Below are positions 15,411-32,655 of a stretch of DNA of 64,000 bases, piece by piece. Made by a program: the position numbers and the translations under genes. The stretch's first letter is position 1, and every line of letters starts with the position of its first letter. Where the stretch lies: the NCBI GenBank assembly GCA_947169825.1, contig CAMVRE010000002.1, positions 1,248 to 65,247 of the forward strand, given 5' to 3'. The DNA is from an uncultured Verrucomicrobiota bacterium. Its GTDB lineage: Bacteria > Verrucomicrobiota > Kiritimatiellia > RFP12 > UBA3636. The notes under the pieces were generated by a model. The model made no database searches. It was not told the origin of the DNA and was given only the letters and a program-made list of their open reading frames with translations.

Positions 15411-17369
15411 CTAGAGGGAGACTCCGGTGTCGCGCGTCTCCTTGCGGGCGAGGGCGGCGTCGAGCGCGGCGTCCGTCGCGAGCAGGACGGCTCGCTTCTC
15501 GGCGCGCGTGACTCCGGTGTAGAGGATCTTCCGGGTGAGCAGCGGGCAGGCCGCCGAGACGGGCAGCACGACGAGAACGTTGAGATACTGCGAACCCTGG
15601 CTCTTGTGGATGGTGGACGCATAGGCCAGCTCGTGCTCCGGCAGAAGCGCGGTGGAACACGCGACGACGGACTCCCCGCGCTCGAAGACCGCGGTCGGAA
15701 CACCGTCCGCACCGCGGACGACAATGCCGACGTCGCCGTTGTAGAGATGCCGGTCCGGCGTGTTGTGCGTGACGATCACCGGGACGCCCGGCAGGTCGAG
15801 CGGCCGTGGATGCGCCTTGCCGCGCTCCGCGGCAAGGCGCTTTCGGGACAGGCGCCTGTTGATGGCGCGCACGCCGAACGGACCTCCGTGGACGGCGGCG
15901 AGGATGCGGGAGCGTTCGAGCATCTTGAAAAGCGCGTTCGACTTCTCCGTGGCCGGGAACGTGCCGTCCTCGCCGGGAACCGGCGCGCGGAACTCCTTCG
16001 CCGCGCGCACAAGCGCGCCGTCCGCGGCGCAAAGCCCGAAGCGGTCGGCCCAGGCGTCAACCGCCTCGCGGGCGGCCCTCGCGGCCGCCTCCGCGTCCTC
16101 GGGGAGCGTCCGCAGGAAGAACTCGCCCTCCGGGGGCGGGGACTTGGCGTCGAAGCCGTCGGTCCAGCTGTCGCCGTCGCGCCGTGACTCCGGCGCGCGC
16201 AGAACGGCGTCCGATCCGGCGTTGATGCCCTCGGCGGCGTCCTTCAGGCGGCCGTTGAAGCGGTGCGTGTTCCCGAGGCGGACGACGAACGGGGCCTGCG
16301 CCTCGCCGACGAGGTCGCCGAGGATGGCGCCCGTCTCGACGGACGGCAGCTGGTCCGAGTCGCCGATGAGGACGAGACGGCAGTCCCCCGGCAGCGCCCC
16401 GAGGAGCGCCCGCATGAGGGGGACGCCGACCATCGAGACCTCGTCGACGACGACGAGCCGGTGCGGCAGCGGATTGTCCGCGTGGTGCGCGAAGCGCGGC
16501 GCGAGGCCGCCGAGGAGCGTGTGGACGGTCGAGTGCCCGAGGCTCCGCAGCGCCTGCCGCGTCCCGTCGTCGAGCCCGAGCGCCTTCCCGCACTCCTTGA
16601 TGATCGCCTCGCCCATGCGCTGCGCCGCGCGTCCCGTCGGGGCCGCGAGCGCGATCTGGTCGGGGCGGAGCGTCCCCGAGGAGAGCAACGCGCGGAGGAT
16701 GGCGCAGACGATCGTGGTCTTGCCGGTGCCGGGACCGCCGGTGATCACGACAAAGCGGCTGGAGGCGGCGCGCTCCACGGCGGCCCGCTGGTACTCGTCG
16801 AGGTCGAACGTGAAGCGCATGGCGCCCTCGAGGAACGCTGGCGCGACGGGCGCGACGTCGGCAGAGCCGGCCGCGCCGTCGCGGAGGCCCCCCAGCAGCG
16901 CGTTGACGGCGTCCACGTCGCGCCACTGGCGCTGGAAGGCGAGCGTCCCGGGGCCGAACGAGTCCACGACCGGGTCGTGCGCGAAAAGCCCGAGGTGCGG
17001 GGCGGCGAAGGCCTCCCACGCGGAGCGCGCGGCCTTCGCGGCGGCTTTGTTGGCATCATCGTCCTCGTCCGGCGACCAGGCGGCGCGGGCGAGGAGCTCG
17101 GGGGCCGCGGCGGTCCGCAGGAAGGAGCTGCCGCCGTGCAGGGCGCGGCAAAGCGCGGCGACGAGCAGCGCGTGGCCCGCACGGGCCTTGAGCTCCGGGC
17201 GCAGATTCGCCAGGTCGCGGGCGAGCTGGAGGTCGGCGAACCGGATGGCGTTCGTGGAGAGCATCCGGGCGAGAACGGCGCGGACTTCGCGTTCGCCGTC
17301 GCTCCCGGAGGAGGGGATGCCTGCGGCGGCGAGCCGGGCGGAAAGCGTTTCGATCGAGGGCGTGGGCAT
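15411..17369 (-). CDS. recD: Exodeoxyribonuclease V alpha subunit RecD
   Basis: 652 aa. SF1 helicase motifs VITGGPGTGKTT, LAAPTGRAAQRM, LVVVDEVSMVG, LIGDSDQLPSVETG, ASTIHKSQGSQY, LYTGVTRA. Confidence 0.85.
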   Translation of the reverse strand: MPTPSIETLSARLAAAGIPSSGSDGEREVRAVLARMLSTNAIRFADLQLARDLANLRPELKARAGHALLVAALCRALHGGSSFLRTAAAPELLARAAWSPDEDDDANKAAAKAARSAWEAFAAPHLGLFAHDPVVDSFGPGTLAFQRQWRDVDAVNALLGGLRDGAAGSADVAPVAPAFLEGAMRFTFDLDEYQRAAVERAASSRFVVITGGPGTGKTTIVCAILRALLSSGTLRPDQIALAAPTGRAAQRMGEAIIKECGKALGLDDGTRQALRSLGHSTVHTLLGGLAPRFAHHADNPLPHRLVVVDEVSMVGVPLMRALLGALPGDCRLVLIGDSDQLPSVETGAILGDLVGEAQAPFVVRLGNTHRFNGRLKDAAEGINAGSDAVLRAPESRRDGDSWTDGFDAKSPPPEGEFFLRTLPEDAEAAARAAREAVDAWADRFGLCAADGALVRAAKEFRAPVPGEDGTFPATEKSNALFKMLERSRILAAVHGGPFGVRAINRRLSRKRLAAERGKAHPRPLDLPGVPVIVTHNTPDRHLYNGDVGIVVRGADGVPTAVFERGESVVACSTALLPEHELAYASTIHKSQGSQYLNVLVVLPVSAACPLLTRKILYTGVTRAEKRAVLLATDAALDAALARKETRDTGVSL

Positions 17370-17423
17370 GGGAAGGGCGGGGCTGTGGATGGGACGGGGG
17401 TTGCAAGGACGTGTCCGCCGGCG

Positions 17424-20400
17424 TCATTCGACGGCGCAGAGGGCGGCGGCGGCGTTTTCGCGGAAGCGGTCGCGCCAGCCGGGGGCGAAGCGTTCGCGGA
17501 AGACGGCCGGCCCGGCGCCATGCTCGCCGCCGCGGACGAACAGATAGACGGCGCCGCCGAGCTTCTCCTCGCCGCCCAGCCAGTCGGCGACGGCGAGGGC
17601 GTAGAGCCGGTACTGCAGCTTGTAGCCGCAGTCGTCCATCTCGGCCTCGGCGTTTTTCTCGTCGTAGGCGTCCAGGGCGTTGGTTTTCCAGTCGAGGATG
17701 AAGAACTTCCCGCCGCGTCCGGCGCGGAAGACCAGGTCGACGGCTCCCTTCAGGAAGCCGTCGCGTTCCGTGGTCCCGGCCACGTGGCGCTCGTCCGCGA
17801 TGAACGGCACCTCGGCGCGGCGGTCGCCGCGCGCGACGTCGGCGAGGCGGCGCGGGCCGTCCGCGAACGGCAGCGGCGCGCGGAGCGCGGCCCAGGCCAT
17901 GCGGCCGAGCGCGCGTTCGGTCGCGCATCCGTCCGCGCCCACGAGCCTCCCGAGCCCCTCCGTGCGCATGGCGTCGGCGACGAGCTTGCGAAGGGCCTCG
18001 TTGTCGGCCCAGAGCTTGTCGAAGTCGTCCGCGCTTCCGACGGACACGAAGCCCGGGCTGCCGGGTTCGTCCGTGCCGTTGCAAAGCGACTCCATCACAT
18101 TGTGGAACGCGTTGCCGCCGGGTTTTCCGCCCGGAACGGCCGAACCGGGGATGGCGTCGGTCCCGGCGTCCGTGGACTCGATGCCGCCCTCGCGATCCTC
18201 GTCGTCTTCCCGGTCCTCGATTTCCGGTTCCGGCTTCAGGTCCGCGGCCTTGTCGGCGCCGCGATCGTGGAGGGAGGAGAACGAGTCCTTGTGCAGACGC
18301 CGGTCGAAAAGATTCCCGAGACCCTTTCCGTCGAGCAGAACGGGCTCGGGCCCGGCTTCGGCGGCGGCGGCTCCTGCCGCGACTTCGGCGATCGGGGCGT
18401 CGAACGCCTCCTTCGGGTCGGCGGTACCGAGATTCGGTTTGCCTTCGGTGAGGTTCGCGACGGCGGCGGCCGCCTCCTGGACGCCTTCGAAATGCCGCAG
18501 AACCGCCTTGCAGAGGAACCCGTCGCGCAGGGCGGAGCCCTCGCTGCCGATGCCCGACGCGGACGCCTTGGCCGACCAGGGCAGGTAGAGCTTCATGCGG
18601 GCGCGGGTCAGGACGACGTAGATCAACCGCCGTATGTTGCGTTTCTCCTCCTCCTCCGCAAGCTTCTCCAGGTCGCCTTCGAGCGGCTTTCCGTCGATCC
18701 GGAAGACGCGGCGGCGGCGGTCGTCGGCGTCGGTCAGGAGTACGCTGTCGGGCTTGAATTTTCCCGTTGTGGAGACGATCTGGGAGAAGCCGTAGGGGAC
18801 GAAGACGACGGGGAACTCGAGGCCCTTGGAGGCGTGCATCGTCATGATCTGCACGCGGTCCTCGTCGGTCTCGCGTTCGCGCAGCGAGGCTTCGTCGCCC
18901 GCGTCCGCGTCGCCGTCGCGCCATGCGCGGAGCGTGTCGGCGAAGTCCTCCAGGACGAGCGCGGAGGAACCCTTGGCGGCGAGCAGGTCGTCGAGGATCT
19001 GCCGCACGCCGGCGAAGCGGCGGTCGAACTCGCGGTCGTCCGGGCCGCGGGGGCTCCGGAGCGCGGTGTCGAAGACGAACGAGTCGAAGAGGCGGCTCCA
19101 TTTGCGCTCGCCGGCGAGCTTCGTCCAGTCCCGGACGAGCTTCGCGACTTCGGGCGGATCGTTCGAGAGCGCGGACTCGAGCTCGTCGAGGCGGACGCCG
19201 AAGAAGGGCGAGAGCAGCGCCGCCGCGCGAAGGCCGCGGCGGTGGGGGCTGGCGACGAAGTCGAGGAGCGCGAGGACGGACTCCGCCTCGGCCGAGGCGA
19301 AGAGTCCCGGCTCCTTGTAGAAGGTGTGCCGGATGTCGAGCCTGTCGAGCTCCCGCTGGATGTGCCGGGCGTGCTTCTTCGCCTTGACGAGGAAGCAGAA
19401 GTCCCCGGGCTTGAAGCGGGTGCGGACGACCCTCCCCTCCTTGTCCCGGAACACGAACGCTCGGTCGCCGAGGTCCAGGAGGCGGCGGATCTCCTCCGCG
19501 GCGTTGCGGACGAACACGGGCAGGCACTGGTCCTGGTTGCCCCAGCCGGCCTTGGCGTCCGCGCCGGCGTCGCGCAACGCCTTGGGCAGCGATTCGAGCA
19601 GCGTGACGGGGCCGCGCCCGGTGCCGTCCGGGTCGCCGTCGCGGTAGCGCTTCTGGTCTTCCGGGGGCGGCGGATCGACGCCACGGTAGACGATGCGGTC
19701 GCCGTCGTCGCCGTCGGCCCCGCCATCCGGCGCGGCGTCGAACCAGTCCGGATCGGAGAACATGTCGTTGAACGCGTCGAGCAGCTGCTTCGGGCTGCGG
19801 AACGAGAATTTCAGCTTGTGCAGCTGTCCCGTCGCCGGATCCGCGAGCACCTTGCGCGCGTCGAGGTAGGTGCCGACGTCCGCGCCGCGGAACCCGTAGA
19901 TCGCCTGCTTTGGGTCGCCCACGGCGAGAAGCAGGCGGGGGCCGCCGGAACCGTCGGACGGCATCGCGACGGCGTGGCGGAACAGCGTCGAGAAGATGCT
20001 CCACTGCAGGCCGTCCGTGTCCTGGAACTCGTCGACGAGCGCGACGCGGTAGGCCTCGCGCAGCTTGGCGCGGAGGGCCTCGCTCTCCGGGCGCGCGACG
20101 ATGTCCGCCGTCCGGTGGATCATGTCGTCGTAGCTGAGCAGCCCCGCCTCGTCCACGCGCCTGCGGAACGCGGCGACGGCGCGGTCGAACAGGTCGCGGA
20201 GGAAGGCCGCGGAGGCTTCCTCCGCGACGAGGCGACCCGCTTCCGGCACGGACTTGCCGACCGCGTCCGCAAGCTTCTCGCACAGCGCGACCGCCTCGGG
20301 TCGGATATTGGCAAGCCATACGTTTTTGCCCCGCCCGGTCACGATGGGGTTCCGGGCTCCGGCAAGGTCGAAGCGGAGGGACCGTGCGGCGATGATGGCG

Positions 20401-21188
20401 GACTTCCAGTCCCCGCCGTCCGCGAGTCCGTCGCGAAGCGCGGGAAGCCCGGAATAGAGCGCAACCGCGTTGTCCCGGCTATTGCTTCTCAGATCGATGC
20501 CGTCGAGCGCCGTCGCGAGCGCGCCGATATCATCGCCGCGTTCTTCCGCCTCGCGAAACACGCGGCGGATTTCGTCCACTTTGCCGCGGAGGAGGCCCGG
20601 CAGAAGGATCTCGAGCGGCGCGTCCCACTCGTAGGAGCGGAACGCGGCGACGGACTTCGCCACGCGGGTCGCGAAGTCGTCGGCGGACGGACTTTCCGCG
20701 GCCTTCAGGAAGTCGCCGAAGTCCTTGCCCCATGCATCGCGGAAGGCCGTCGAGCGGAGCGTGTCGACGACGGCCGCGCGGGCGATGGCGGCGAGCGCTT
20801 CGGACGCGACGACCTCGGCGGCCATCGGGAGGCCGTTCTCGAAGGCGTATTCGCGCAGGACGCGCTGGCAGAAGGAATGGATGGTGCTGATGGTGGCGTC
20901 GTCGAAGCCGCGAAGGGCCTCCTTGAGGCGCTTCTGGTCGCCCTTGCCGGCGGCGAGCTCCTTCTCGAGCGCGTCGCGAATGCGGTCCCTGAGCTCGCCG
21001 GCCGCCTTCTCGGTGAAGGTGACGAGGAGGATCTTCTCGATCGGGACGCCCTCGTCCGCGACGAGGCGCAGGACGAGCTTCTGGAGCGTGTGGGTCTTCC
21101 CGGTTCCGGCGGACGCCTCGACGATGGCGTCCCTTCCGAAGTCGATCCTGTCCCAGACGGGCGGTTGCGGTGCGTTCCGGTCCGGCAT
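17424..21188 (-). CDS. recB: Exodeoxyribonuclease V beta subunit RecB (UvrD-type helicase plus C-terminal PD-(D/E)xK nuclease)
   Basis: Last 1254 codons of track ORF 17424-24860, starting at MPDRNAPQPPVWDRIDF... Motifs EASAGTGKTHTL and LLVTFTEKAAGELR; nuclease motif GAVDLVFRAGRGGKFFILDWKTN. The start lies 2 nt after the recC stop. Confidence 0.85.
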   Translation of the reverse strand: MPDRNAPQPPVWDRIDFGRDAIVEASAGTGKTHTLQKLVLRLVADEGVPIEKILLVTFTEKAAGELRDRIRDALEKELAAGKGDQKRLKEALRGFDDATISTIHSFCQRVLREYAFENGLPMAAEVVASEALAAIARAAVVDTLRSTAFRDAWGKDFGDFLKAAESPSADDFATRVAKSVAAFRSYEWDAPLEILLPGLLRGKVDEIRRVFREAEERGDDIGALATALDGIDLRSNSRDNAVALYSGLPALRDGLADGGDWKSAIIAARSLRFDLAGARNPIVTGRGKNVWLANIRPEAVALCEKLADAVGKSVPEAGRLVAEEASAAFLRDLFDRAVAAFRRRVDEAGLLSYDDMIHRTADIVARPESEALRAKLREAYRVALVDEFQDTDGLQWSIFSTLFRHAVAMPSDGSGGPRLLLAVGDPKQAIYGFRGADVGTYLDARKVLADPATGQLHKLKFSFRSPKQLLDAFNDMFSDPDWFDAAPDGGADGDDGDRIVYRGVDPPPPEDQKRYRDGDPDGTGRGPVTLLESLPKALRDAGADAKAGWGNQDQCLPVFVRNAAEEIRRLLDLGDRAFVFRDKEGRVVRTRFKPGDFCFLVKAKKHARHIQRELDRLDIRHTFYKEPGLFASAEAESVLALLDFVASPHRRGLRAAALLSPFFGVRLDELESALSNDPPEVAKLVRDWTKLAGERKWSRLFDSFVFDTALRSPRGPDDREFDRRFAGVRQILDDLLAAKGSSALVLEDFADTLRAWRDGDADAGDEASLRERETDEDRVQIMTMHASKGLEFPVVFVPYGFSQIVSTTGKFKPDSVLLTDADDRRRRVFRIDGKPLEGDLEKLAEEEEKRNIRRLIYVVLTRARMKLYLPWSAKASASGIGSEGSALRDGFLCKAVLRHFEGVQEAAAAVANLTEGKPNLGTADPKEAFDAPIAEVAAGAAAAEAGPEPVLLDGKGLGNLFDRRLHKDSFSSLHDRGADKAADLKPEPEIEDREDDEDREGGIESTDAGTDAIPGSAVPGGKPGGNAFHNVMESLCNGTDEPGSPGFVSVGSADDFDKLWADNEALRKLVADAMRTEGLGRLVGADGCATERALGRMAWAALRAPLPFADGPRRLADVARGDRRAEVPFIADERHVAGTTERDGFLKGAVDLVFRAGRGGKFFILDWKTNALDAYDEKNAEAEMDDCGYKLQYRLYALAVADWLGGEEKLGGAVYLFVRGGEHGAGPAVFRERFAPGWRDRFRENAAAALCAVE

Positions 21189-21190
21189 GG

Positions 21191-24100
21191 CTAGGCCCCC
21201 TTCTCCTTGATTCCGGCGATCATCTGCGCGAACCGTTTTCCGGCGATCGCCCGCAGTTTGTCCTCCGGCAGATCCTCCAGATCGCGGACGAGCGTGTCCG
21301 CGAGCGTTTCGACCGCGAGCTCCGACGCGGTCCGGCCGCCGCCTCCGTCCCACTCGGACGGCGGGCTGCGCAGCGCCTTCAGCGTCTCGGGCCAGTCCGT
21401 CTTCGCGAAACGGCCGGCGTCCGGAGCGGGCTTCCCTTTCGCCTTTTCCGGCCACGCCCACGCCTTCGCGAAGTCCGTCCAGCCGAACGAGAAGACATGG
21501 CCATCCGCATCCAGGCGGTCGGAATCCGCGAAGGAGAGCCAGTCGGCCGCGAGGCCGGCGAGGAAGCCGCGGGCCTCGTCCGCCTGCGGCGTCTCCCACC
21601 GCCAGGCGCCGAAGCGTTCGTTCGGCTGCTTTGCGTTCAGGTTGACGACCGCGACCCGGAGCGGCGGCGGCGCCTTGCCGTCCGCGCAGGCGGCGAGCCA
21701 GACGAGCAGCGGCCCGGCCGCGACGTCGGGCGCCAGGACGGCATCCGAATCGAACTTGCGGAAGAAGAGCGCCGTCGCGGCCGTCTCCGTCCCGGCCGGC
21801 GGATACCAGGCCGGCGTGTCGCCGACGAAGCGGAAGGAGCGGGTTCCGCCCGCCGTGGCGACATCGATCGAGGGACGGACGCGCAGCGGCTCGGGCGTTC
21901 TCGGCCCCGCCGCGCGAAGGCCCGTCCGGCGCAGCGCGTCGAGCCAATCGCCGAGCGTCGCCTCGTTGCCGAGCGAGCGGCCCCGTTCGTAGTCGCCGAG
22001 GAAGCCCTCCGGCGCCGCGGCGCGGCGCTGGAGTCCGGCGAACAGCTCCCTGGCCTTCGCGGCGAGCGCGTCCGCGTCCGGCTCCACGGGCTCCGAGAGG
22101 AAGAACGAGGCGAGCTCGCCCTGGACGCCCCAGAAGTCCGGTCCGTAGGAGAGCGAGAGCGCAGGATCGTCCGCCGGCGCCTTGTCCTGCCAGCCCTTCC
22201 TTTCGATGCCGAACCGACGCGAGAGGATCGCCTTGAGCGGATCCGCCAGGAACTCGGCGAGGTCGCGGAGGCGGATGTCCCCGGATTCGGCCCCTCCGGC
22301 TCCGCCGGACCGGATCGTCGCGAAGCGCGCCGGCGGCGAATCGAGGCCGGCGCGGATGCGGGCCGCCTCGCGGATCTCGGCGCGGTAGGTCGGGAGCAGG
22401 CCCGCGAGCGGGCCGTCCCGGACGGGATCGGGCCTGCACGTGCACGCCGGGTCGCTTTCGAGGAGCGGGATGTCGGCCGCGGGCAGCGGGCCGCTCCCGG
22501 GCGGCAGCACGTTCTCCTCGACGAACCGCCTCAGGTCCCGGACGACCGAGCAGGGGAAGAGGTCCGCGTCCTTGCGGAGGTCCTTCGAGACCCAGGAGAG
22601 GACGAGGCGGTCGCGCGCGGCCATGAGCGTCTCGAGGAAGAGGTAGCGGTTGATGTCCGGCATGCGCGCGTCGCCCACCGCGCGGCCGAGGCCGCGCAGG
22701 TCGAGCGTGGAGTCGGATACGGTCCCCGGGAACCGCCCCTCGTTGAGCCCCAGCACGAAGACCTGGCGGAACGGCACGGGGCGCATCGGCTGCAGCGAGG
22801 CGACCGTGACGCCGCTCGTGAGGTAGCCCCCGCGGCGCGAGGGCATCGCGCCCACGAACTGCTCGATGCACTGCGCGACGAACGGCAGGCGCAGCGCGCC
22901 GAAGCCCTCGAGCGAGCGGAGGGTCGAGAGGACGGCGCGGCGGACGGCGGCCTCGAGCTTGTCGTCCGGCGCGACGGCAAGGAACCGGGCGGCCAGCCGC
23001 TCGACGGCCTCGAGCCAGCAGGACGGATCCTTCCCATCGCCCGCGAACTCCGCGACGGCCGGCAGCGCGGCGCGGTCGCGCAGCGGCGCGAGGGACAGGA
23101 AGAGCTCCTCCACGATCTCGGGGAAGCGCAGGTCCTCCCCGTCCGCGCGCTCCGGCAGCGGCAGCGGCGCCCCATCCGCGCCGGCGGCCTCCTCGGCCAC
23201 GGCGGAGAGGCGCAGGCGCGAGAGCGCGTAGTCCCAGGTTCCGTTCGCCGCGTCCGCGAGGCCGTGGGCCTCCGCGTCGGCCGCGTCGAACCAGCGGAAC
23301 GCGCCGGTCTCCTCCGCGCGGTCGCGCCAGGCGCGGAGGTCGTCCGGCGAGAAGCGCAGCGCGCGCTGCACGCAGGGGTTCGCCAGGACGTCGAAGATCG
23401 CCGAGCGCGAGAGCCCCCCGGCGGCGAGGCGGAACAGCGCGAGCAGGCCGCGCAGCAGCGCGCTGTCCTGCGAGGCGGCGCCGTCGACGAGCCCGTAGGG
23501 GATCTGCCCGCGGCCGTCGAACACCTCCTCGATCACGGGCCTGTAAGTGGCCATGTCGGGGACGAGCACCGCAATGTCGGAGAAGGTGGGGCCGTCCCCG
23601 CCATCCGCCTCGCCGGGCCGCCAGACCGCGCCGAGGATCGCGTTGTAGACCGTCTCCACCTCCCGTCGGACGCTTTGCGCCTTCACGAGCTGCAGCGAGG
23701 CGTCCGGGGCGACGCGCCGCAGCTCCGACGTGCGCGTTCGCACCGACGACTGGACGGTCGAGAGCACCGTCGGCTCGCGGACGTCCGGCGCGGGGTCGAG
23801 CGCGCGGATGTCCAGACTCACGTCGCGGTTCTCCTCCTCGAGGTCCACCAGCAGCCGCATCGTCTCGCGGCCGGCTTGCCCCCAGGCGGAAAGCAGCTCG
23901 TTGTCCGAGCCGATGTCGCCGGGATCCGTCGCGCCGGCCTGGCGCGCGCGCTCCCACGGCGATTCGATGTCGCCCCAGTATTCGAGGCAGACGGTGAGGT
24001 GGTAGAAGACCACCGCGTGCGTCTTCGCGAGCCAGTGGAGAATCCGGGCGTGGAGCAGCGAGAGGGACGACTGGCCGAAGAAGAACAGCGTGCGCGCGGG

Positions 24101-24765: not shown

Positions 24766-27700
24766 TCAGGTGCCTTTCTTTGACTTTCCGTCGGCGGAGT
24801 CGGGCGCGGGCGGATTGCCCGGGCTGTCGCTCCAGTCGACCCAGCGGTTGCCGCCGCCACGGTCCTGCAGACGGCTGGAACGGCTTCCCTTGACGGCCTC
24901 GAGGACGGTGTCGGCGGCCGACAGGACGGCCTCGACGTGCGTGACGACGCCGACGAGCGTGCCGGACGTGCCGATGCGGTCGAGCACCTCGATCGCCGCG
25001 TCGAGCGATTCGCGGTCGAGCGTGCCGAACCCTTCGTCGAGGAACAGGTTCCCGCACGCGCCGCCGCCCCGCAGCGCCGCGAAGCCGAGCGCGAGGGCGA
25101 GCGACGCGAAGAACGACTCGCCGCCGGAGAGGTTCGAGACGGGGCGCGTGCCGTCCTGCTCCGCGTCGATGACGCGCAGGGATTCGTCCCGGAGCTTGCC
25201 CGACTCCGTGAGGCTTACGCCGCCGGACGACCACGCGAAGCGGTAGCGCTTGCCGGACAGGGCCTGCAGGTGAGGGTCCGCCGCCAGGACGAGATTCCGG
25301 AAGTTGAGCCTCTGCGCGAAGAGCTGGAACGCCTTTCCTTCATTGCCGCCGAGCATCGCGTCGAGATCCTTCCAGTCGTCCGCCGTCTTCTTGAGCGGGG
25401 CGAGCGCATCCTTGTCCGCCTCGACCTCCGCCGCGAGCGCATCGTATGCCGCAAGCTCGTTCCTGGCCGCGCCGGCCTTCTGGTCTGCATCGCTCTGGGC
25501 CTTTTCGGCGGGGGCGAGCTCGGCCCGGACGGTCGCCTCGGCCCGCCGGGTCGGGGGCTTGTCCTTGTCGCCATCGAGCAACCTGGATTCCCGCTCCAGT
25601 CGATCCTTTTCGCCGGCGGTTCCGTCCGCGCCGTAGAGCCGGATGGATTCGTTGTGGAGAATGCTCTCCTTGTTTTCGAGAGTCTGGAAATCGCCGTCGT
25701 CAAGCTGCGCGGCATTCCAGTCCGCGTCCGTTGCGAATCCGGCGTTGGTGCGCTTCGCGTCGAAGCCGGCTCGAAGAGTGGCGGCGTCGGACTTCGCCTT
25801 GGACTCGTCATTCGTCAATTTCGTTCGGTCCGCCTGCCAGTTCGCCAGATTCGTGTTCGCGGCATCCAGATTGGCCTTTGCCGTCGCGGCCGTCTTGTCC
25901 GCGACGGCCTTCCCTCCGTTCAGCCGGTCCCGTTCATCCTGCGGTTTCTTCGTGCCGTAGAGATCGGAGCGGGCCTTTTCGAGGGCGGCGAGACGTTCCT
26001 TCTCCCTGTCGACTTTCTCCTGGGCCGTCTTCAAATCGGTCGCGGTCTGATTTACGGAATCCCTCAGCTGCGGGAGGGCGGCGGCCTTGGTGTCCGCGTC
26101 CTGCTTCGCGGCGGCGACGTCGGAGATCGCGTTCTGGATATCCCGGTCCGCAGTCGCTTGAACCGTCTGGAGGTTGTTCTTCGCCGTGTTCGTGGCGGCA
26201 ACGGCCTTCTGCCAGGCCTGGAAAAGACCGTCGGTTCTGACGACGAGGGCCTGGACGGCGGCGTCGCCGTCCTGGATTTCCTTCGCGTACTTGGACGAAG
26301 GCGGCAGGCTGACGGCGGGAATCGCGTTGGCGTCCTTGTGGTGGATGACGCCGCAGACAGGGCAGGGTTCGCCGTCGACAAGGTGCGCGCGCATGGTCTC
26401 GGCGTTCTGGCTTTCGGTCTGGACGGCGAGGAATCGGAGTGCCTCCTTCTCGGCCCGTTCTACCTTCCACTTGTCCGCGGCGGCATCGGAATTCGTCTTG
26501 GCAAGGTCGTAGTCCCGCTTCTTCGCCGACGCGGCTTCTTCAAGGTCGCCGATCGGGTCCCGCGCCGCCTTGATGCGGTTCTGTGCATCGCGCGCGCTTG
26601 CAATGGTTTGGAATAGGGGTTCGTCTTTCCACTTCTTGTCGGGATCCGTTCCGTTCGTCCAGTACGCGTCCGCGGCGTCGGCGCGCTCGGCCGCCGTCTG
26701 CGCGGCCGTTTTCGCAGCGGAAAGATCGGTCGAAGCCTTGGTCGCCGCGGATTGTTTTCCGGCAAGGGCGGTGTCAAGCCGCAGGACCTCGCTCCGCTGG
26801 TCGGCGATGACCTTGTCCCGCGCGTCGATGTCGTCGAGGAACGCCTTGCGGTCGACGATGGCCTTCTGCGCCCGTTCGACGGCCGTCCGGGCCTTTTCGT
26901 CGCACTCCTTCAGTCCGGGCAGGGCGTCTTGGGCCGTTTTGATCTTCCCGTCGAGCTGTCGGATCTGATTGACCAGATTTGTCTCCCTGCTCTCCGCGAG
27001 CGATAGCGTGTTCCAGTCGGCTAGCAGGGAGGCCGCCTTGCGGGCGGCGTCGAGGCGAGCCTGGTCCGGCGCGAAGTCGGCTTTGTCGTCCGCGAGTTTC
27101 TTCGCGTCCGCTTTGAAGGTTCCCCGGTCCGTGTCGAGACGGTCGGCTCGTTTCGTCCAGGCGAGTTCGCCGCGGAGTTTTTCCGCCGCGGCCTTCGCCC
27201 GGGTGGCGGTCTCGTTCGCAGCGGCCAGCCGCTCTTCCAGCTCCTGGCGCTCGCCCGACTTCTCCAGCAGTTCCAGTCGGGTTCCGGCCGCGGTCTTTTT
27301 CTGATCGAACGCGGCGACGGCTTCGAGCTTGCGGCGATTGATTTCGGCGCCGATGAGCCCGAACTGGGGCGAGTCGGTGACCTTCTCGAGAATCGCGGCG
27401 CGAGTTTCCTCGTCGGCCTTGAGGAACTGGTCGAATCGGCCCTGGGAGAGCAGGACGATGCGCGTGAACTCGCCGTAGGTGAATCCGAGCCGAGCGGCGA
27501 CGATCGCGGCGCAGTCCTTCGACTTTTTGCCCCCGTAGATGGATTTCGGCGAGCCGTTCGCCGCCCGGTCGGTTTCGTCCCACAGTTCGTGGCGGTATGG
27601 GTCGAGCCCGTCCTTCTTCTTCGGTTTCCGTCGCTGGGCCCAGACGGCGCGGTAGGTGTGTCCGTCGATGCCGACGAAACGAACGGCGGCGCGGCAGAAC

Positions 27701-29232
27701 GTGGCAGTGCGGGCCATGACCTCGTTTTCGTTCTGCGTGATTTCCTTTTCCTGCCGGGCCGTCTGGCCGTAGAGCGCGAGCGTGATGGCGTCGAGGACGG
27801 TCGTCTTTCCCGCGCCGGTGTCGCCCGCGATGGCGAACGTCCCGCCATGCTCGCGGAGCTTCTCGAAGTCGATCTCCGCGCGGCCCTTGAGGCTGTTGAG
27901 GTTGGAGAGTTCGACGGAGAGGAGGCGGGGTGTCGCCCGGCGTTCGGGAGCGCCGCCGCCGGCGGCGGCCGCCGCATTGGACGGGGCCGCGGCGGCGGCC
28001 TCGCGGACGAGGGCGAGGAGCTCGTCGGCACGCGCCGGCGAGACTTTCGACGCGTCGAAGCGCAGCTTCGCGACGCCCTCCGGGTCGAGTTTCGCGAACG
28101 TGGCGGGGTCGAAGGCGGGCAGCGCGGCCGCGCCCGTCCGCTCCCGGCCGTCGCGCAGGCCGAAGAATTCGGCGCCGGACCCCTCGACCGCCTTTTCGAG
28201 ATTCGCGGTAAGCTCCTCGAGCGAGCCCTCGCCATCGGTGATCTTCGCCGTGAACCAGGCGGCGGCGACGGGATTTTCGTCCGTGTCCGCGCCGGGATTC
28301 CTCGAGACAAGACGCTTCGCCTCGCGGACGATGTCGTCCGACGTCCCCTCCAGCACGCGAATCTTGCGCAGGACCTTCGGGTCCACGAGGATGGGGTCGA
28401 CGGAGACGGCGCCGTCGTCCGCGAACGCCACGAACGGGACGGACTTGGGCGTCGCGAGCTCGCCCGTCCCGACCGCGTAGGGGGAGCCGGCATAGAAGGC
28501 CCTGCCGCACGGGACGGCGACACCCTGCGGGATGTGCAGATGCCCGAGCGCGGCGTAGTCGGCCGCCGGCAGGGCGGAGGCGGGGACCTCGACCACGTTG
28601 CCGACGACCCGGAGCTCGGCGCCCCGCGCGTCGAACGCCTTCGCGCCCTGCACGGCGCAGTGGGCGACGACGACGAGCGGCGATCCGGCGTGCGCGGCGG
28701 CGCGGGCGCGCTCCGCGGTGCGCTCGAAGTGCGCGCGGAAGCCCGCCTGGAGCGCGTCCGCCGGATCCGTCCCGGCGGGCGCCTCGTTGCGCAGCCGCGA
28801 TTCGCGCAGGAACGGAACGGCCGCGACGGCGAGCGCACCGCCGTCCGCGCAGGGGACGGCGAACGCCTCGTCATCCTCGAGCGAGGGGCCGTCCGCCACG
28901 ATGCGGATGCCGCTGTGCCGCGCGAGTCCGCCCGCGCAGCGGAGCGCGGGGGCGGAGTCGTGGTTGCCGGCGATGGCCACGACCGCGCCGACGAGCGGGT
29001 CGGCCGGATCCCGCAGGCGCGCGAGGAAGTCGTACCAGACCTGGCGGGCGGCGGGGGAGGGGGCGTGGCCGTCGAAGACGTCGCCCGCGACGACGAGCAG
29101 GTCGGCGCGCGGAGTCTCGTCGGCGAGGCGTCCGCAAAGCCAGTGGAGGAAATGCCGCTGCTCGGCGAGCCGTTCGTGGTTGTGGAGCGTGGCGCCGAGA
29201 TGCAGATCGGCGAGATGGACGAGTTTCTTCAA
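24766..29232 (-). CDS. sbcCD: SbcD-SbcC fusion protein (Mre11-type nuclease fused to Rad50-type ATPase), 1488 aa
   Basis: N-terminus: MKKLVHLADLHLG, VVAGDVFD and AIAGNHD (calcineurin-like phosphoesterase motifs). From about residue 440: LLSVELSNLNSLKGRAEIDF...FAIAGDTGAGKTTVLDAITLALYG (Walker A), long coiled-coil regions, Zn hook GEPCPVCG, signature LSGGESF and Walker B LFLDEGFGTLD. There is no stop between the two parts. The start codon is TTG. Confidence 0.8.
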   Translation of the reverse strand: MKKLVHLADLHLGATLHNHERLAEQRHFLHWLCGRLADETPRADLLVVAGDVFDGHAPSPAARQVWYDFLARLRDPADPLVGAVVAIAGNHDSAPALRCAGGLARHSGIRIVADGPSLEDDEAFAVPCADGGALAVAAVPFLRESRLRNEAPAGTDPADALQAGFRAHFERTAERARAAAHAGSPLVVVAHCAVQGAKAFDARGAELRVVGNVVEVPASALPAADYAALGHLHIPQGVAVPCGRAFYAGSPYAVGTGELATPKSVPFVAFADDGAVSVDPILVDPKVLRKIRVLEGTSDDIVREAKRLVSRNPGADTDENPVAAAWFTAKITDGEGSLEELTANLEKAVEGSGAEFFGLRDGRERTGAAALPAFDPATFAKLDPEGVAKLRFDASKVSPARADELLALVREAAAAAPSNAAAAAGGGAPERRATPRLLSVELSNLNSLKGRAEIDFEKLREHGGTFAIAGDTGAGKTTVLDAITLALYGQTARQEKEITQNENEVMARTATFCRAAVRFVGIDGHTYRAVWAQRRKPKKKDGLDPYRHELWDETDRAANGSPKSIYGGKKSKDCAAIVAARLGFTYGEFTRIVLLSQGRFDQFLKADEETRAAILEKVTDSPQFGLIGAEINRRKLEAVAAFDQKKTAAGTRLELLEKSGERQELEERLAAANETATRAKAAAEKLRGELAWTKRADRLDTDRGTFKADAKKLADDKADFAPDQARLDAARKAASLLADWNTLSLAESRETNLVNQIRQLDGKIKTAQDALPGLKECDEKARTAVERAQKAIVDRKAFLDDIDARDKVIADQRSEVLRLDTALAGKQSAATKASTDLSAAKTAAQTAAERADAADAYWTNGTDPDKKWKDEPLFQTIASARDAQNRIKAARDPIGDLEEAASAKKRDYDLAKTNSDAAADKWKVERAEKEALRFLAVQTESQNAETMRAHLVDGEPCPVCGVIHHKDANAIPAVSLPPSSKYAKEIQDGDAAVQALVVRTDGLFQAWQKAVAATNTAKNNLQTVQATADRDIQNAISDVAAAKQDADTKAAALPQLRDSVNQTATDLKTAQEKVDREKERLAALEKARSDLYGTKKPQDERDRLNGGKAVADKTAATAKANLDAANTNLANWQADRTKLTNDESKAKSDAATLRAGFDAKRTNAGFATDADWNAAQLDDGDFQTLENKESILHNESIRLYGADGTAGEKDRLERESRLLDGDKDKPPTRRAEATVRAELAPAEKAQSDADQKAGAARNELAAYDALAAEVEADKDALAPLKKTADDWKDLDAMLGGNEGKAFQLFAQRLNFRNLVLAADPHLQALSGKRYRFAWSSGGVSLTESGKLRDESLRVIDAEQDGTRPVSNLSGGESFFASLALALGFAALRGGGACGNLFLDEGFGTLDRESLDAAIEVLDRIGTSGTLVGVVTHVEAVLSAADTVLEAVKGSRSSRLQDRGGGNRWVDWSDSPGNPPAPDSADGKSKKGT

Positions 29233-29254
29233 GGGAAAACAATGCTTGGACTTG

Positions 29255-30667
29255 CTAACCGCCGACTTCCTGCCAGCCCTTCTTGACGTTCGCCGCGATG
29301 TCGGCGTCCATCAGGGCTGCGAGCTGCTCGCGCGAGGAGGAGATCCGGATGACGCGGTCGAGCGGCTTCGCGCGGCCGGAGCTGTAGTCCGTGAAGTGGT
29401 AGACGTAGGCCGGATACCGCGGGTCGGTCCCCTCCTTGTTGGTCTTCCAGAGCAGGTACTTCTGCACCATCAGCTTCGCGGGCTTGTCCCCCTTCGCGGG
29501 CGTCTCCTTCACGAAGACGCGGCGCGCGAGGATCTCGCTCTTCGGCAGGTCCGCGGCCGCGGCCGTCTTCGGCGCCGCGAACGGGCAGAGGTCCGTGATC
29601 TGCCGCTCGGCCACGAGCGCCGGGTCCGGCGTCTTGTCCTCGCGCAGGCGCTCGAAGACGGGGCTCTTCACCGAGACGCCCGCGCTCAGCCCGCGCGAGG
29701 TCCACCCCGCGGCGGGGTCCCACGTCGCGACCGGGTTCGTCTTCGGCCGCCCGTCCGAGCCCTCGGCGACGAACTCCGCGACCGAGATCTCCGCCACGAT
29801 CTCCGGCCTTGCCATCCGGAACGCGACGCCGTCGCGGTCCGCCTGGACGAACCGCGAGGGGCAGTCGAGCGCGCGCAGCCGTTCGAGGAGCGCCTTGCGG
29901 TCCTCCGCGGAGAACCCGCCCCCGACGATCCCCGCGATCCGGTAGTCGCCCGCCTCGTCGCGCACGGCGAAGAGCGCGTTGCGCAGCCCCAGGTCGCCCA
30001 CGGTGTAGCCGACGAGCACGGCGTCGATCGTGTGCCGGGGCTTCATCTTCCAGACGAACCCCGACGGCGCGTGGATCACGAGCCCCTCGGCGCCCTCGCC
30101 CTCCACCCAGTCGCGGTAGATCTCCTCGATGCCCTCCAGGTCCGCCGCCTCGCGGCGCTCGACGGGCCGCACGGCCTCGTCCTTGAACCACGCCGAGAGC
30201 TTCGCGTGGACCGCCGCGTAGCCCTTCTCCGCGAAGGGCGCGCCGTCGATCTCCGCGATGCCGAACGGCGCGAGCCTCAGCTCGCCGACGCGCTTCGGGT
30301 CGGCCAGCGCCGAGAGCGCGTCGCCCACGCGCGGGCGGCCGTTCGCGACGGGCAGGTAGAGCTCGCAGACCACCGTCGCGGACTGCACGCCCGCCGCGCG
30401 CAGCGCCGCCGCGAGCACCTCCGCGCACGGCGCCTCGAGCGCCTTGCCGCCGCTGCCGACGAGCGTCGCGGCGCCGTCGCGGAAGAACGCGCATGCCATC
30501 ACGCCGTCGATCTTGCGCGTGACCTGGAACGTCTCCTTCCCGCCGCCGCGGATGTGCTCCTTGGCCGTGGCGGGGTCCACGAGGTAGAAGCGGTTGGACA
30601 TGTTCTTCTTGCAGTCGGCCGCCGCCTTGCGCAGCTCGGCCGGGACTTCCGCCGTCTTGTCAGCCAT
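29255..30667 (-). CDS. ATP-dependent DNA ligase with ~100-aa C-terminal extension
   Basis: 470 aa. Motif I TRKIDGVMA, III VVCELYL, IV EGLVIHA, V FVWKMKP, VI FERLREDK. The tail ...YPAYVYHFTDYSSGRAKPLDRVIRISSSREQLAALMDADIAANVKKGW is loosely WGR-like (unverified). The start overlaps the upstream gene by 8 nt (ATGGCTGA). Confidence 0.75.
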   Translation of the reverse strand: MADKTAEVPAELRKAAADCKKNMSNRFYLVDPATAKEHIRGGGKETFQVTRKIDGVMACAFFRDGAATLVGSGGKALEAPCAEVLAAALRAAGVQSATVVCELYLPVANGRPRVGDALSALADPKRVGELRLAPFGIAEIDGAPFAEKGYAAVHAKLSAWFKDEAVRPVERREAADLEGIEEIYRDWVEGEGAEGLVIHAPSGFVWKMKPRHTIDAVLVGYTVGDLGLRNALFAVRDEAGDYRIAGIVGGGFSAEDRKALLERLRALDCPSRFVQADRDGVAFRMARPEIVAEISVAEFVAEGSDGRPKTNPVATWDPAAGWTSRGLSAGVSVKSPVFERLREDKTPDPALVAERQITDLCPFAAPKTAAAADLPKSEILARRVFVKETPAKGDKPAKLMVQKYLLWKTNKEGTDPRYPAYVYHFTDYSSGRAKPLDRVIRISSSREQLAALMDADIAANVKKGWQEVGG

Positions 30668-31367
30668 TGGGAAGCTCCTTGAGTTCGAGGTTCGTGAGGT
30701 GCAGCAGGAGCAGGTATCTGTCGCCGTCCACGCGCCCCTCCAGGAAGCCGCGGTAGGGCGTCCCGTTCCGGTCCAGCACGAGCGGCCCGGCCCCCTTCTC
30801 GCCGGCGCCCACGAGCATCATCGCCCTCTTGGACGCGAGCGTCTCCGCCATCTCGCGGAGGAACTTGTAGGTGAGCCCGTTCACGTGCCGCAGCGCGAGG
30901 CAGCGCCCGAAGGCGAACCGCCGGATCGCGGCCTTCTTCGGGAAGAGCTTGCCCGTCCAGCGGACCGGGAGCTTCTCCAGCGCCACGTTCGCGGGCGTCT
31001 CCGCGGGGGCGCGCTCCTCCTTCACCGTTCCGTCCGGGGCGACCACGCGCTCCCGGAGCGCCACGTCGAAGGCGACCTCGCCCGCGTCCGTCACGTAGAC
31101 CTTGTGCAGCCCCTCCAGCCGGCGGCCGGCGAGCTCGAGGTCGATCTCCGGGTCGCCCTCGACGATGCGCCGCCCGAGCGCCACCGCGTCGGGCGTCTCC
31201 TTCCGGAGCGCCTCGACCGTCGTGCCCGCGGTCTCGTCGAGGATCCGCCCCGACTCGAACGCGACGCCGCCCGGCGCCGCCCTGCGGACGGTTCTCTTCG
31301 CCCGGACCGGCTCGAACCCGACCTCGGCGTCGAGCCGCTCCGCGTTTGCCAAATGGATCGTTCTCAC
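30660..31367 (-). CDS. Hypothetical 235-aa protein, translationally coupled on both sides
   Basis: GTG start with GGAGGA 7 nt upstream, overlapping the stop of the 403-aa gene. No motif recognised (MRTIHLANAERLDAEVGFEPV...LLLLHLTNLELKELPNG). Confidence 0.6.
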   Translation of the reverse strand: MRTIHLANAERLDAEVGFEPVRAKRTVRRAAPGGVAFESGRILDETAGTTVEALRKETPDAVALGRRIVEGDPEIDLELAGRRLEGLHKVYVTDAGEVAFDVALRERVVAPDGTVKEERAPAETPANVALEKLPVRWTGKLFPKKAAIRRFAFGRCLALRHVNGLTYKFLREMAETLASKRAMMLVGAGEKGAGPLVLDRNGTPYRGFLEGRVDGDRYLLLLHLTNLELKELPNG

Positions 31368-31379
31368 GTTCGCTTCCTC

Positions 31380-32591
31380 CTACATCATCCCGAAATCGAG
31401 CTCTTCCTCTTCGCCGGACGCCTCCTCCGGCTCCTCCTCCAGCTCGCCGGCCTGCTCGAGCCCGACGAACTCCCGCGCCACCGGGTCGCCGGCGAAGAGC
31501 CAGGCGACGCCGCCCGACGCGAGCAGGCACGCCTCCCTGGGCGCCGGCCCCGCGCGATAGTTGAACGGGAAGCGGAAGATCCGCTCCCCCACCGCCGCCG
31601 CGAGGTCCGGATTGGAGAGCTGGTAGACGGAATCCCAGACGTGGTCGAGGAACGCCTCCTCGTCCGCCTCCTCCGCCATCGTCCCGGCGCGGCAGGCGAA
31701 CTCCGACTCCTCCGCCGTCGGCAGGCGGAAGACCAGCCCGGACGCCTTCGCGGCGGGCAGCGCATTGAGCTTCTCCAGGAACTCCCGGCAGTCGTCCCAC
31801 GAGACGTTCTCCACCGGATTCTCCGCACCATTGAACTTGGCGGGGTTCTCGCCCATTACGGCCTCCCATTGCGCCTGCGTGACCGGGAACCGTCCCATCG
31901 AGTGTCCCTTTCCGGGAATCGGGACCATCGCGAGCTCGACGCCGCCGGGCAGAGAGAGCGTCGCCGGCGCGGCGGACGCGGATTCGGCGCAAAGACGCAA
32001 GCCGATGAAGTCGTCCCGAAGCGAAGGCAGACCCGTGTCCGCAGCACAGGGCACACAGTACTCGGCCGTGCTGCGCCAGCTGCCCCCGCGCAAGATGCAC
32101 CACACCGTTCCGTCCTCGTTCTCTTCCTGCGTCGAAGTCCACTCCGCCACGTTGCCGAGCGCGTCGTAGAGGCCGAACGAATTCGGCCTCTTCTGCCCGA
32201 CGGGATGCGTCGTGCCGCCGGAGTTGTCCGCGAACCACGCCACCTCGCCGAGCGGCGCCGTCGCGATCGCGACGGCGCCGTCCGGGGGCGTCAGCGCGAC
32301 CGGCGCATCGAACGTGGACGGGACGGTCGGCAGCTCGTTGCCGGCCTCGTCCACGTACGTGAGCGCGTCGGCGTCCAGCCAGGTGCCGTCGGCGGCGAGG
32401 GTCGCGTTCGCGGTCCCGCTCGCGGGGACGACGAGCGAGCCGTCGGGGTCGAGCCACGCCTTCCGGCACGGCGCCCCCGCGGCGTCCATCGCCACGATCT
32501 CGGTCTTCCCGTAAAGCTTGTCCCGGTCCAGTTTCACGGGCTCGGCCTGGAAGGCCGTCCCGCCCAAATCGAATGTCAGCGCTCTCGCCAT
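31380..32591 (-). CDS. FGE/SUMF1-domain protein with permuted (C-half then N-half) domain order and acidic tail
   Basis: 403 aa. Residues ~105-195 are AWFADNSGGTTHPVGQKRPNSFGLYDALGNVAEWT...RGGSW...IGLRLC, the usual C-terminal half. Residues ~215-300 are MVPIPGKGHSMGRFPVTQAQWEAVMGENPAKFNGAENPVENVSWDDCREFLEKLNA...LVFRLPTAEESEFACRAGT, the usual N-terminal half, ~75% identical by eye to the 37849-38520 protein. Confidence 0.7.
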   Translation of the reverse strand: MARALTFDLGGTAFQAEPVKLDRDKLYGKTEIVAMDAAGAPCRKAWLDPDGSLVVPASGTANATLAADGTWLDADALTYVDEAGNELPTVPSTFDAPVALTPPDGAVAIATAPLGEVAWFADNSGGTTHPVGQKRPNSFGLYDALGNVAEWTSTQEENEDGTVWCILRGGSWRSTAEYCVPCAADTGLPSLRDDFIGLRLCAESASAAPATLSLPGGVELAMVPIPGKGHSMGRFPVTQAQWEAVMGENPAKFNGAENPVENVSWDDCREFLEKLNALPAAKASGLVFRLPTAEESEFACRAGTMAEEADEEAFLDHVWDSVYQLSNPDLAAAVGERIFRFPFNYRAGPAPREACLLASGGVAWLFAGDPVAREFVGLEQAGELEEEPEEASGEEEELDFGMM

Positions 32592-32626
32592 ATCGTTCCT
32601 TTCCGCTTGTGTTCGGTGATGGGGGA

Positions 32627-32655
32627 AGTATACCCCGCCGCGGCCGGAAAATCAA
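32627..32655 (-). promoter_or_regulatory. Sigma70-like promoter TTGATT-N17-TATACT at the head of the 32591->15411 gene string
   Basis: Minus strand: TTGATT (comp. 32650-32655), a 17-nt spacer, TATACT (comp. 32627-32632), about 35 nt before ATG 32591. Confidence 0.45.

Follow-up and report, generated by a model that had tools for sequence, protein, structure and literature searches.

Why do genes for an FGE-domain protein, a 235-aa protein and an ATP-dependent DNA ligase stand directly in front of sbcDC, recC, recB and recD on a contig of an uncultured Verrucomicrobiota bacterium (Kiritimatiellia; NCBI GenBank assembly GCA_947169825.1, contig CAMVRE010000002.1)? The genes lie on the minus strand of a stretch of 64,000 nucleotides (positions 1,248 to 65,247 of the contig), which in its whole length is referred to as the window, and a first-pass annotation of this DNA had proposed that the three head genes form an end-recognition and resealing accessory of RecBCD and SbcCD or, alternatively, a guard layer that senses invading DNA. 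The analysis described here points, with somewhat better than even confidence, to a highly divergent two-subunit Ku–ligase system of nonhomologous end joining (NHEJ), which in this clade has been set before a fused sbcDC gene and recC, recB and recD. The function of the three-gene cassette (A, B and the ligase gene C) is one that we infer; the reading was adopted because the order A–B–ligase is conserved across phyla, the models of A and B resemble only Ku, the ligase motifs are kept and the nearest named families of the ligase are NHEJ ligases.

Raw lists of open reading frames (ORFs) in the window are dominated by spurious frames because its G+C content is ~70%; the minus-strand genes were picked by translation and by codon-position G+C. 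The seven tightly packed minus-strand coding sequences of the first-pass annotation were recovered at exactly the same coordinates, each with a single stop codon and with successive junctions of 12, −8, 22, 5, 2 and 54 nt. Gene A (31380–32591) encodes an acidic protein of 403 aa that belongs to a 198-aa family, is predicted to have a Ku fold and carries an inserted FGE domain. Gene B (30660–31367, GTG start) encodes a basic protein of 235 aa, also with a predicted Ku fold, and gene C (29255–30667) encodes the ATP-dependent DNA ligase (470 aa) with nucleotidyltransferase and OB domains.

The family of B comprises 2362 homologues at E ≤ 1e-3 (47–93% identical, all of ~230 aa), none of which contains a Pfam domain. 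In a scan of one genome per species, at least 564 species-level genomes were found to encode a relative of B; they belong to about eight phyla, including Bacteroidota, Lentisphaerota, Actinomycetota, Bacillota, Chloroflexota, Myxococcota and Spirochaetota. An exhaustive profile search for A (E ≤ 1e-3) gave 868 representatives at 50% clustering, nearly all of 196–215 aa. In Bacteroidales and Micrococcales contigs the B gene has a ~199-aa gene upstream and an ATP-ligase gene of 454–478 aa downstream. Synteny was assessed by searching 87 loci, each taken with flanks of at most 10 kb per side, with every window protein (tblastn): A, B and the ligase gene are contiguous in 59 of the 67 loci with enough flank, the ligase gene is shifted by a few kilobases in three more, and the extra C-terminal domain of the ligase is syntenic with A and B almost everywhere among the 87. 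Judged by gene order, the three head genes are one self-contained conserved cassette, unannotated and widespread. The statement of the first-pass annotation that no system of such composition has been described held up in the searchable literature and the family libraries: full-text searches returned no description of the cassette (an absence that is no proof) and no curated family covers A or B.

The surroundings of the cassette are heterogeneous. In a Pfam census of the two nearest genes on each side no partner was conserved; among those downstream are LRR_5, AAA_16, protein kinases, ResIII, Strawberry-notch-type helicases, AAA_5, nSTAND3 and DUF932, and upstream neighbours are miscellaneous. 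The cassette stands amid restriction- or defence-type genes in L001–L003 (Bacteroidales), L086 and L087, where PDDEXK_4, DUF2779, a PvuRts1I-like SRA nuclease, McrB-like AAA_5 and a GIY-YIG nuclease were found, together with a MoxR-type AAA_5 gene with DUF2201; in L086, a 64%-identical relative, the McrB-like gene follows the cassette. In the Micrococcales locus L004 the surroundings are of an ordinary housekeeping kind.

Searches with A and B against Pfam (E ≤ 0.01), NCBIfam, PADLOC and PHROG gave no match, the FGE domain inserted in A excepted, and profile searches of the PDB with both proteins returned noise only. The structure of B was predicted with AlphaFold2 from a 33-sequence alignment (pLDDT 68.3, pTM 0.48) and compared with the PDB using Foldseek, which gave 65 matches at E ≤ 1e-3, the top 50 all being Ku. 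The best match is Mycobacterium tuberculosis Ku (9i91_B; E = 4.3e-7, TM score 0.53); others include another Ku homodimer on hairpin DNA (8v53) and Ku70/80, and the alignments span ~240 columns. In BFVD the sole significant match of the B model was Ku of Mycobacterium phage Dylan (E = 1.4e-3, TM score 0.50), followed by a match at E = 0.5. Protein A was modelled through the insertion-free homologue P0121, which is 93% identical to window A minus the insert. This model (pLDDT 66.5, pTM 0.57) likewise retrieved only Ku among its top 50 PDB matches, the best being Bacillus subtilis Ku (9vnq_A; E = 2e-4, TM score 0.44). Modelling followed by Foldseek, which had been put forward as a check on the head proteins, thus returned only Ku among the top 50 PDB matches for B and for the insertion-free A homologue, in both cases from models of medium confidence. 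On these models A and B are predicted to carry the Ku beta-barrel core fold. The assignment rests on fold and genomic context because the two proteins have no detectable sequence similarity to Ku or to each other.

Several results weigh against this assignment. The Pfam Ku family PF02735 was matched neither by A or B nor, even at E ≤ 10, by any of 33 homologues of B. Alignment with hhalign of the A and B profiles to a 10-sequence Ku alignment (including eight plasmid Ku genes plus near-identical mycobacterial proteins) gave probabilities of 0.4% and 0.2%, and hhalign detected no mutual similarity between A and B. Confidence in the models is medium (pLDDT 68 and 66.5, TM scores of 0.44–0.53, rmsd 5–8 Å). 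An A–B heterodimer is a conjecture from strict gene adjacency and complementary isoelectric points (pI 4.1 and 9.0), and subunits that encircle DNA do not usually have an overall pI as low as 4.1. The Ku likeness might be an artefact of medium-confidence models; A and B would then be some other sort of accessory protein (for example a regulator, a scaffold or a clamp) to a nick-sealing ligase or an RNA/DNA ligase. The lack of Ku similarity at the sequence level and pLDDT values of 66–68 with long low-confidence segments speak for such an artefact, which we consider quite improbable: two unrelated sequences, modelled independently, both retrieve only Ku among the top 50 PDB matches and over nearly their full length, the separate library BFVD gives a single significant match that is also Ku, and the partner is an ATP-dependent ligase nearest to the NHEJ families, the usual gene partner of Ku. 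The low-confidence segments presumably sit where the arms of Ku would be expected.

The ligase itself was readily assigned to its class by Pfam (DNA_ligase_A_C, 6e-12). Its best NCBIfam match is the NHEJ ligase domain TIGR02779, with 51.5 bits against a cut-off of 227.75, and the LigD models also score far under their cut-offs. Motifs I, IV, V and VI read K52-I-D-G, EGLVIH, K207-M-K209 and R342-E-D-K345 in the window protein, and K52, D54, G55, E194, G195, K207, K209, R342, D344 and K345 do not vary across 20 aligned sequences of the family; as read from these residues, the ligase keeps all of the catalytic motifs of ATP-dependent DNA ligases and its active site is intact. A single-sequence search of the PDB gave no match. 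The family profile was needed to reach DNA ligases in the PDB (1e-17), among them archaeal ligase, human LIG1 and LIG4 and the ligase domain of M. tuberculosis LigD, which align with positions 20–354 only. The protein is not a LigD, since no polymerase (Prim-Pol) or phosphoesterase domain is fused to it and the ligase core alone matches. The remaining C-terminal domain (29258–29590, minus strand; ~110 aa) is basic (pI ~9) and is the best-conserved part of the protein; a sequence match to it was found in neither Pfam nor the PDB. WGR domains occur in some known ligases, in the arrangement NT-OB-WGR (PMC7470946). A WGR identity of the C-terminal domain (..VWKTNKE..FSSGRK..NVKKGW), considered because of a likeness to the eye, found no support and is no more than a lead: PF05406 was unmatched in 27 members at E ≤ 10 and the profile hit no PARP chain in the PDB.

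A second ligase gene lies a few kilobases downstream of the operon on the same strand (9768–11609). Its 613-aa product is of the NAD-dependent LigA type, with adenylation, OB, Zn-finger and BRCT domains, and scores 283 bits against an NCBIfam cut-off of 444; it could be either a divergent LigA or a LigB-like paralogue.

The charges of the three proteins suggest how they might work together. The median pI is 4.1 for the A family and 9.0 for B (9.2 for window B), and that of the C-terminal domain of the ligase is 8.9; A ends in a conserved acidic tail of the pattern ..[DE][IL]DF[SDG][ML][MFIL], which reads ..EEELDFGMM in the window. Basic B and acidic A would pair into a heterodimeric ring like that of Ku70/80, through which a double-strand end is threaded, and the invariant acidic tail of A would recruit the ligase through its basic C-terminal domain. 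Only ends that are already ligatable would be sealed because the ligase has no polymerase or phosphoesterase domain. With the cassette placed between the operon promoter and sbcDC, end joining would be co-expressed with SbcDC and RecBCD, of which the former would open or clean ends that are blocked or form hairpins and could, in addition, cut off ends that have protein bound to them, and the latter would provide resection and recombination as an alternative route. Functional cooperation of this kind is plausible. A bolder form of the proposal, which we hold only tentatively, is that A and B make up a eukaryote-style heterodimeric Ku ring, that the cassette is a second bacterial NHEJ system, invisible to sequence searches and widespread in anaerobic gut and rumen bacteria, and that in this clade it forms, in one transcript with the SbcDC fusion and RecBCD, a unit of pathway choice: ends would be joined if possible, and otherwise clipped and resected.

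The closest known system is the Ku–LigD NHEJ of M. tuberculosis and B. subtilis. Here as there, Ku beta-barrel proteins (predicted in our case) are encoded beside an ATP-dependent ligase, whose core in the cassette is nearest to NHEJ models, and adjacency of Ku and ligase genes was seen in the canonical loci examined. The differences are that Ku of the Ku–LigD system is a homodimer, whereas the cassette encodes two different subunits that lack Pfam or profile–profile similarity to Ku, one of them strongly acidic with a conserved acidic tail, and that its ligase carries, in place of the polymerase and phosphoesterase domains found in LigD, a basic C-terminal domain of ~110 aa that is new. The closest precedent with two subunits is Ku3–Ku4 of Sinorhizobium meliloti, which together with LigD4 has been proposed, on genetic inference, as a bacterial Ku heterodimer (PMC6379672). 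Two adjacent, co-maintained genes of Ku type (by predicted fold in the cassette) with a ligase are found in both cases, and tandem Ku–Ku genes adjoin LigD on rhizobial plasmids; however, the rhizobial proteins are canonical PF02735 paralogues accompanied by a full LigD, whereas the subunits of the cassette are unrecognizable by sequence and the ligase architecture is different. What the locus shares with eukaryotic Ku70/Ku80–LIG4 and Mre11–Rad50 is a heterodimeric Ku (predicted), an ATP ligase of its own and a nuclease of Mre11/Rad50 type (SbcD/SbcC) that would act on the same ends, here in one string of genes; it differs in that vWA and SAP domains are lacking, as are XRCC4/XLF-type factors, and in the presence of RecBCD. 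The likeness is one of function and does not argue for direct descent.

Phage Mu Gam offers a different comparison. Gam blocks RecBCD. It is a small Ku-related end-binding protein, as A and B may be, and it affects the access of RecBCD to ends; unlike them, it is a lone phage protein that has no ligase as its partner. A and B could by analogy be Gam-like end caps that shield ends from RecBCD/AddAB and SbcCD or regulate these nucleases, with the ligase resealing the protected ends, and could in this way safeguard DNA, incoming or the cell's own, that restriction systems have cut, for example in integrative elements or defence islands. Mu Gam is described as a Ku-like end-binding protein in a preprint (bioRxiv 10.1101/2022.02.08.479637). 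The neighbours of the cassette elsewhere include McrB-like AAA_5, PvuRts1I/SRA, ResIII, GIY-YIG, PDDEXK_4, DUF2779, nSTAND3, DUF932 and Strawberry-notch-type helicases, and in the window the cassette appears to be co-expressed with the very nucleases that would be modulated. Even so, a capping role appears distinctly unlikely. Homologues of B are absent from 72,556 PLSDB plasmids, 50,697 INPHARED phage records and the viral contigs of IMG/VR; neither A nor B has a PADLOC or PHROG match; some loci, such as the Micrococcales one, are in housekeeping surroundings; and the ligase is almost always kept, which fits repair better than capping. No Gam structure was found among the Foldseek matches of the A and B models in the PDB or of the B model in BFVD.

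The end-joining reading places no weight on the FGE domain by which the first-pass annotation had characterized the head gene. In an alignment with 18 homologues, residues 1–101 and 307–403 of A are colinear with proteins of ~198 aa; since proteins of ~199 aa align end to end with these two segments, the 403-aa protein is a member of the A family with 205 extra residues. Compared with locus L088, whose DNA is 95% identical, the window has 616 nt (31677–32292) in place of 1 nt, which adds 205 codons in frame. Residues 8–107 of the insert resemble residues 264–357 of a local FGE paralogue (37849–38946), and residues 102–206 resemble residues 153–254 of the same paralogue; because these stretches match in swapped order, the insert is a complete, circularly permuted FGE-sulfatase domain. 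The Pfam score of A for PF03781 (85.9 bits) is above the cut-off and is made up of two stretches in permuted order, so that the domain is not a contiguous native one. The FGE match of the earlier description was therefore correct and the protein is a chimera of an A-family member and an insert rather than a native FGE protein.

The segment was absent from all 87 loci (tblastn), from homologues P0121–P0123 (89–93% identical protein) and from loci L088 and L089. It is present in locus L103 (protein P0264), which is 97% identical over 2886 nt, and because a second assembly thus has it the insertion is real and no assembly error. At ~1290–1330 of L103 (window ~32530–32560) there is a 17-nt frameshifting deletion in A after codon ~10, which may be a sequencing error or a sign that A decayed once the domain had been inserted. 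On this comparison, A acquired the FGE domain recently and only in this strain group, by insertion in frame into one of its loops, and the domain lies outside the ancestral system. Where the insertion has its upstream edge, the coding sequence contains a perfect 28-bp palindrome, CGGCGCCGTCGCGATCGCGACGGCGCCG (32253–32280). The protein encoded across it is identical in L103/P0264, and the palindrome may be a footprint of the insertion event.

These comparisons bear directly on the proposal that the head genes are an invader-sensing guard layer, with the FGE or C-lectin-like domain as a ligand sensor on top of RecBCD and SbcCD. RecBCD is a known anti-phage nuclease, which counts for this proposal, as does the FGE-domain gene that also follows recD. 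The domain is, however, missing from 93–95%-identical relatives and from the A-family loci examined, the 97%-identical L103 excepted, it copies a local family of paralogues in permuted order, and one of the two alleles that carry it (L103) has the frameshifting deletion near the start of A. PADLOC (PADLOC-DB 2.0) assigned no family to A, B or the ligase and reported only generic ATPase/helicase similarities for SbcC, RecB and RecD. A ligand-binding head domain and a guard function thus found no backing in, respectively, the close relatives and the defence-system library; the proposal is largely refuted by the comparative data and we regard it as highly improbable. FGE paralogues are scattered through the region and through the flanks of its relatives. 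The gene upstream of the string (32856–34625, minus strand) encodes a 589-aa protein with ~20 tandem repeats of a ~13–26-aa unit (..QPQFADKCDWSKL..) and no Pfam match, and shares a Lys/Ala-rich N-terminus (MAQKK..AKK..) with the FGE protein encoded after recD.

The assignment of the downstream genes as SbcDC, RecC, RecB and RecD was borne out by Pfam and NCBIfam, with SbcD and SbcC found to be one ORF. The SbcD–SbcC fusion (24766–29232, TTG start; 1488 aa) has Metallophos, AAA_23 and SbcC_Walker_B matches, as in SbcCD nucleases; residues 3–393 match TIGR00619 with 127 bits (cut-off 77.65), and the SbcC part from residue 437 matches PRK10246 (1e-79) and TIGR00618 (2.6e-70), both under the equivalog cut-offs. 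The joined proteins are of ~1490–1500 aa, with an Ala-rich linker at about residues 395–436, and the fusion also occurs in related metagenome loci L090 (2726–7231), L091 and L093. RecC (21191–24760; 1189 aa) has TIGR01450 as its best match (1.6e-92, under the cut-off) and contains Pfam Exonuc_V_gamma and RecC_C; RecB (17424–21188; 1254 aa), a UvrD-type SF1A helicase with a PD-(D/E)XK nuclease, has TIGR00609 as its best match (2.2e-120, under the cut-off) and contains UvrD-helicase, UvrD_C and PDDEXK_1; and RecD (15411–17369; 652 aa), an SF1B helicase, scores 321 bits against the TIGR01447 cut-off of 310. The three RecBCD subunits are thus encoded together, and RecB, RecC and SbcC are considered to be divergent orthologues because their best matches are clear yet fall under equivalog cut-offs. 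In Escherichia coli sbcD and sbcC are separate genes, and the sbcDC and recC-ptrA-recB-recD loci are unlinked. The domain content of the five proteins is the same as in E. coli, whereas here SbcD and SbcC are fused, the five functions are contiguous and the Ku-like/ligase cassette stands in front.

Whether all of these genes are transcribed together was judged from promoter and terminator signals. The TTGATT-N17-TATACT element at 32627–32655 on the minus strand, with the core GGGGTATACTT, is the only sigma70-like match in 14000–33500, as the first-pass annotation had stated (one found, 0.4 expected from shuffles), and its core occurs exactly once in the window. Terminator-like matches showed no excess (16 compared with 13.8 expected from shuffles). 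An eighth gene probably belongs to the string: at 14351–15376 on the minus strand an FGE-sulfatase-domain protein with a Lys/Ala-rich N-terminus is encoded (Pfam FGE-sulfatase, 5e-18), the start of which lies 34 nt past recD with an AGGAGA site in front. A GC-rich hairpin element of the form CGCAAGTCCGG-hairpin-CCGGGCGTTGTCTCTCC (predicted free energy ~−45 kcal/mol) adjoins the stop codon of this gene as a putative terminator (14245–14353, minus strand), and a second copy (32749–32856) lies upstream of the promoter, after the gene that ends at 32856. There is a partial copy (9685–9754) after the gene ending at 9768, shorter matches are found at 37546–37593 and 5212–5249, and in L088 a complete element follows the ligase gene (L088 2879–2945). 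The arms are conserved among the copies, and the stem varies in sequence with the pairing kept; the structure call is suggestive because z-scores against shuffles are only −1.4 to −1.9. Within this genome the repeat probably serves as a terminator or gene-end element. No copy was found within 14353–32591. Searches of the window for tRNAs and Rfam families gave no matches. Because there is no hairpin element inside, a single promoter core and an FGE gene 34 nt after recD, the transcription unit is likely to comprise eight genes, from ~32655 to ~14300.

The 22-nt spacer between the ligase gene and sbcDC (29233–29254, minus strand) reads CAAGTCC-AAGCATTGTTTTCCC. On our reading of these short sequences it resembles the gene-end element minus its hairpin, and loss of the hairpin would explain the transcriptional fusion of a formerly separate cassette to sbcDC. 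All of the genes are probably read from one promoter because the gene-end hairpin after the ligase appears to have been lost in this strain.

How old and how firm this linkage is was addressed with close relatives. A metagenome scan with the SbcD part gave five related loci; from the labels STEW19 and WILK20, which we take to denote rumen metagenome sets, the relatives would come from rumen samples. L091 and L093 have the fused sbcDC, recC and recB, with the cassette not in view. In L090 the order is cassette–sbcDC–recC–recB, without the FGE insert and with very divergent RecC and RecB; its cassette is 55–69% identical to that of the window, compared with 87% for SbcD and 76% for SbcC. L092 is the L090 locus with an out-of-frame deletion from codon ~68 of A into the end of the ligase gene, and L094 has the window promoter and codons 1–28 of A, which run straight into the stop codon of the ligase gene; after this come the 22-nt spacer, as in the window, and sbcDC. 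On these loci the arrangement of the cassette followed by sbcDC is older than the strain, and it is found with two cassette alleles. An assembly chimera at the ligase–sbcDC junction was considered and rejected, as the junction and spacer recur in L094 and the gene order recurs in L090.

Other features of these loci count against a firm coupling. In L090 a spacer of 117 nt with TTGTAA-N17-TATTAT separates the ligase gene from sbcDC, the cassette has repeatedly been deleted within the clade (L092, L094), and in L088, 95% identical, it sits elsewhere and is followed by the hairpin element and an FGE gene, not by sbcDC. Because the coupling to sbcDC–recCBD is lost in L092 and L094 and absent in L088, it is dispensable and may be incidental. 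The alignments of L089 (position 2094), L094 (2001) and L103 (1220) have exactly the same starting point, window 32659, which lies a little before the −35 hexamer, and the upstream gene differs from that of the window in L089 and L103, the two loci where it is visible; it seems that a promoter-plus-cassette block moves or that 32659 is a recombination boundary.

The cassette could thus be functionally unrelated to sbcDC–recCBD, its adjacency being a by-product of frequent rearrangements that involve FGE paralogues and gene-end elements, without selected co-transcription. Outside the clade none of the 87 loci has sbcCD or recBCD nearby: SbcD, SbcC, RecB, RecC and RecD gave no tblastn match in their flanks of up to 10 kb. 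The relocated cassette of L088, the deletion variants that show the cassette to be dispensable, the promoter GCGGGGTATACTT, similar to that of the window, placed directly upstream of sbcDC in L091, and the upstream contexts, which differ in four assemblies and all break at 32659, are to be expected of an unrelated module. Such independence is nevertheless rather unlikely, since L090 retains the order cassette–sbcDC–recC–recB with a far more divergent cassette, which points to long retention or to repeated placement at one site, and all of the gene products act on DNA double-strand ends. Of the accessory role first suggested for the head genes, end recognition and resealing is thus upheld by two predicted Ku folds and a ligase, and a general dependence on RecBCD and SbcCD is not, as 87 of the 87 loci lack these genes; co-location with end-processing genes is confined to the clade (L090, with remnants in L092 and L094).

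If the cassette performs active end joining, the distribution of bacterial NHEJ has been underestimated, since surveys with Ku and LigD profiles would be blind to it; many gut and rumen Bacteroidales, Lentisphaerae and Clostridia that such searches leave unflagged would be affected. Among bacterial Ku there would then also be a form that requires two subunits, which has a bearing on the origin of the Ku70/80 heterodimer. In the carriers, many of them gut and rumen Bacteroidales and Clostridia, surviving cuts by Cas9 or restriction enzymes, the results of genome editing and foreign-DNA uptake would depend on the capacity to rejoin ends. The operon would be a natural experiment on the coordination of end joining, Mre11–Rad50-type end cleaning and RecBCD resection, and the series of close relatives with an intact cassette, deletion remnants, a relocation and a domain insertion could guide genetics.

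Further end-processing functions are encoded outside the string. A RecD2-type SF1B helicase (59820–62981, plus strand) scores 819 bits to TIGR01448 and has an extra N-terminal region of ~316 aa, so that the window holds RecD, RecD2, RecBC, SbcDC and two ligases. Positions 4000–8000 have a G+C content of 40–48% in a genome of ~70%; the ORFs in this low-G+C segment, of 839 aa (5568–8087) and 561 aa (3271–4956), gave no Pfam or NCBIfam match, and the segment is possibly foreign DNA.

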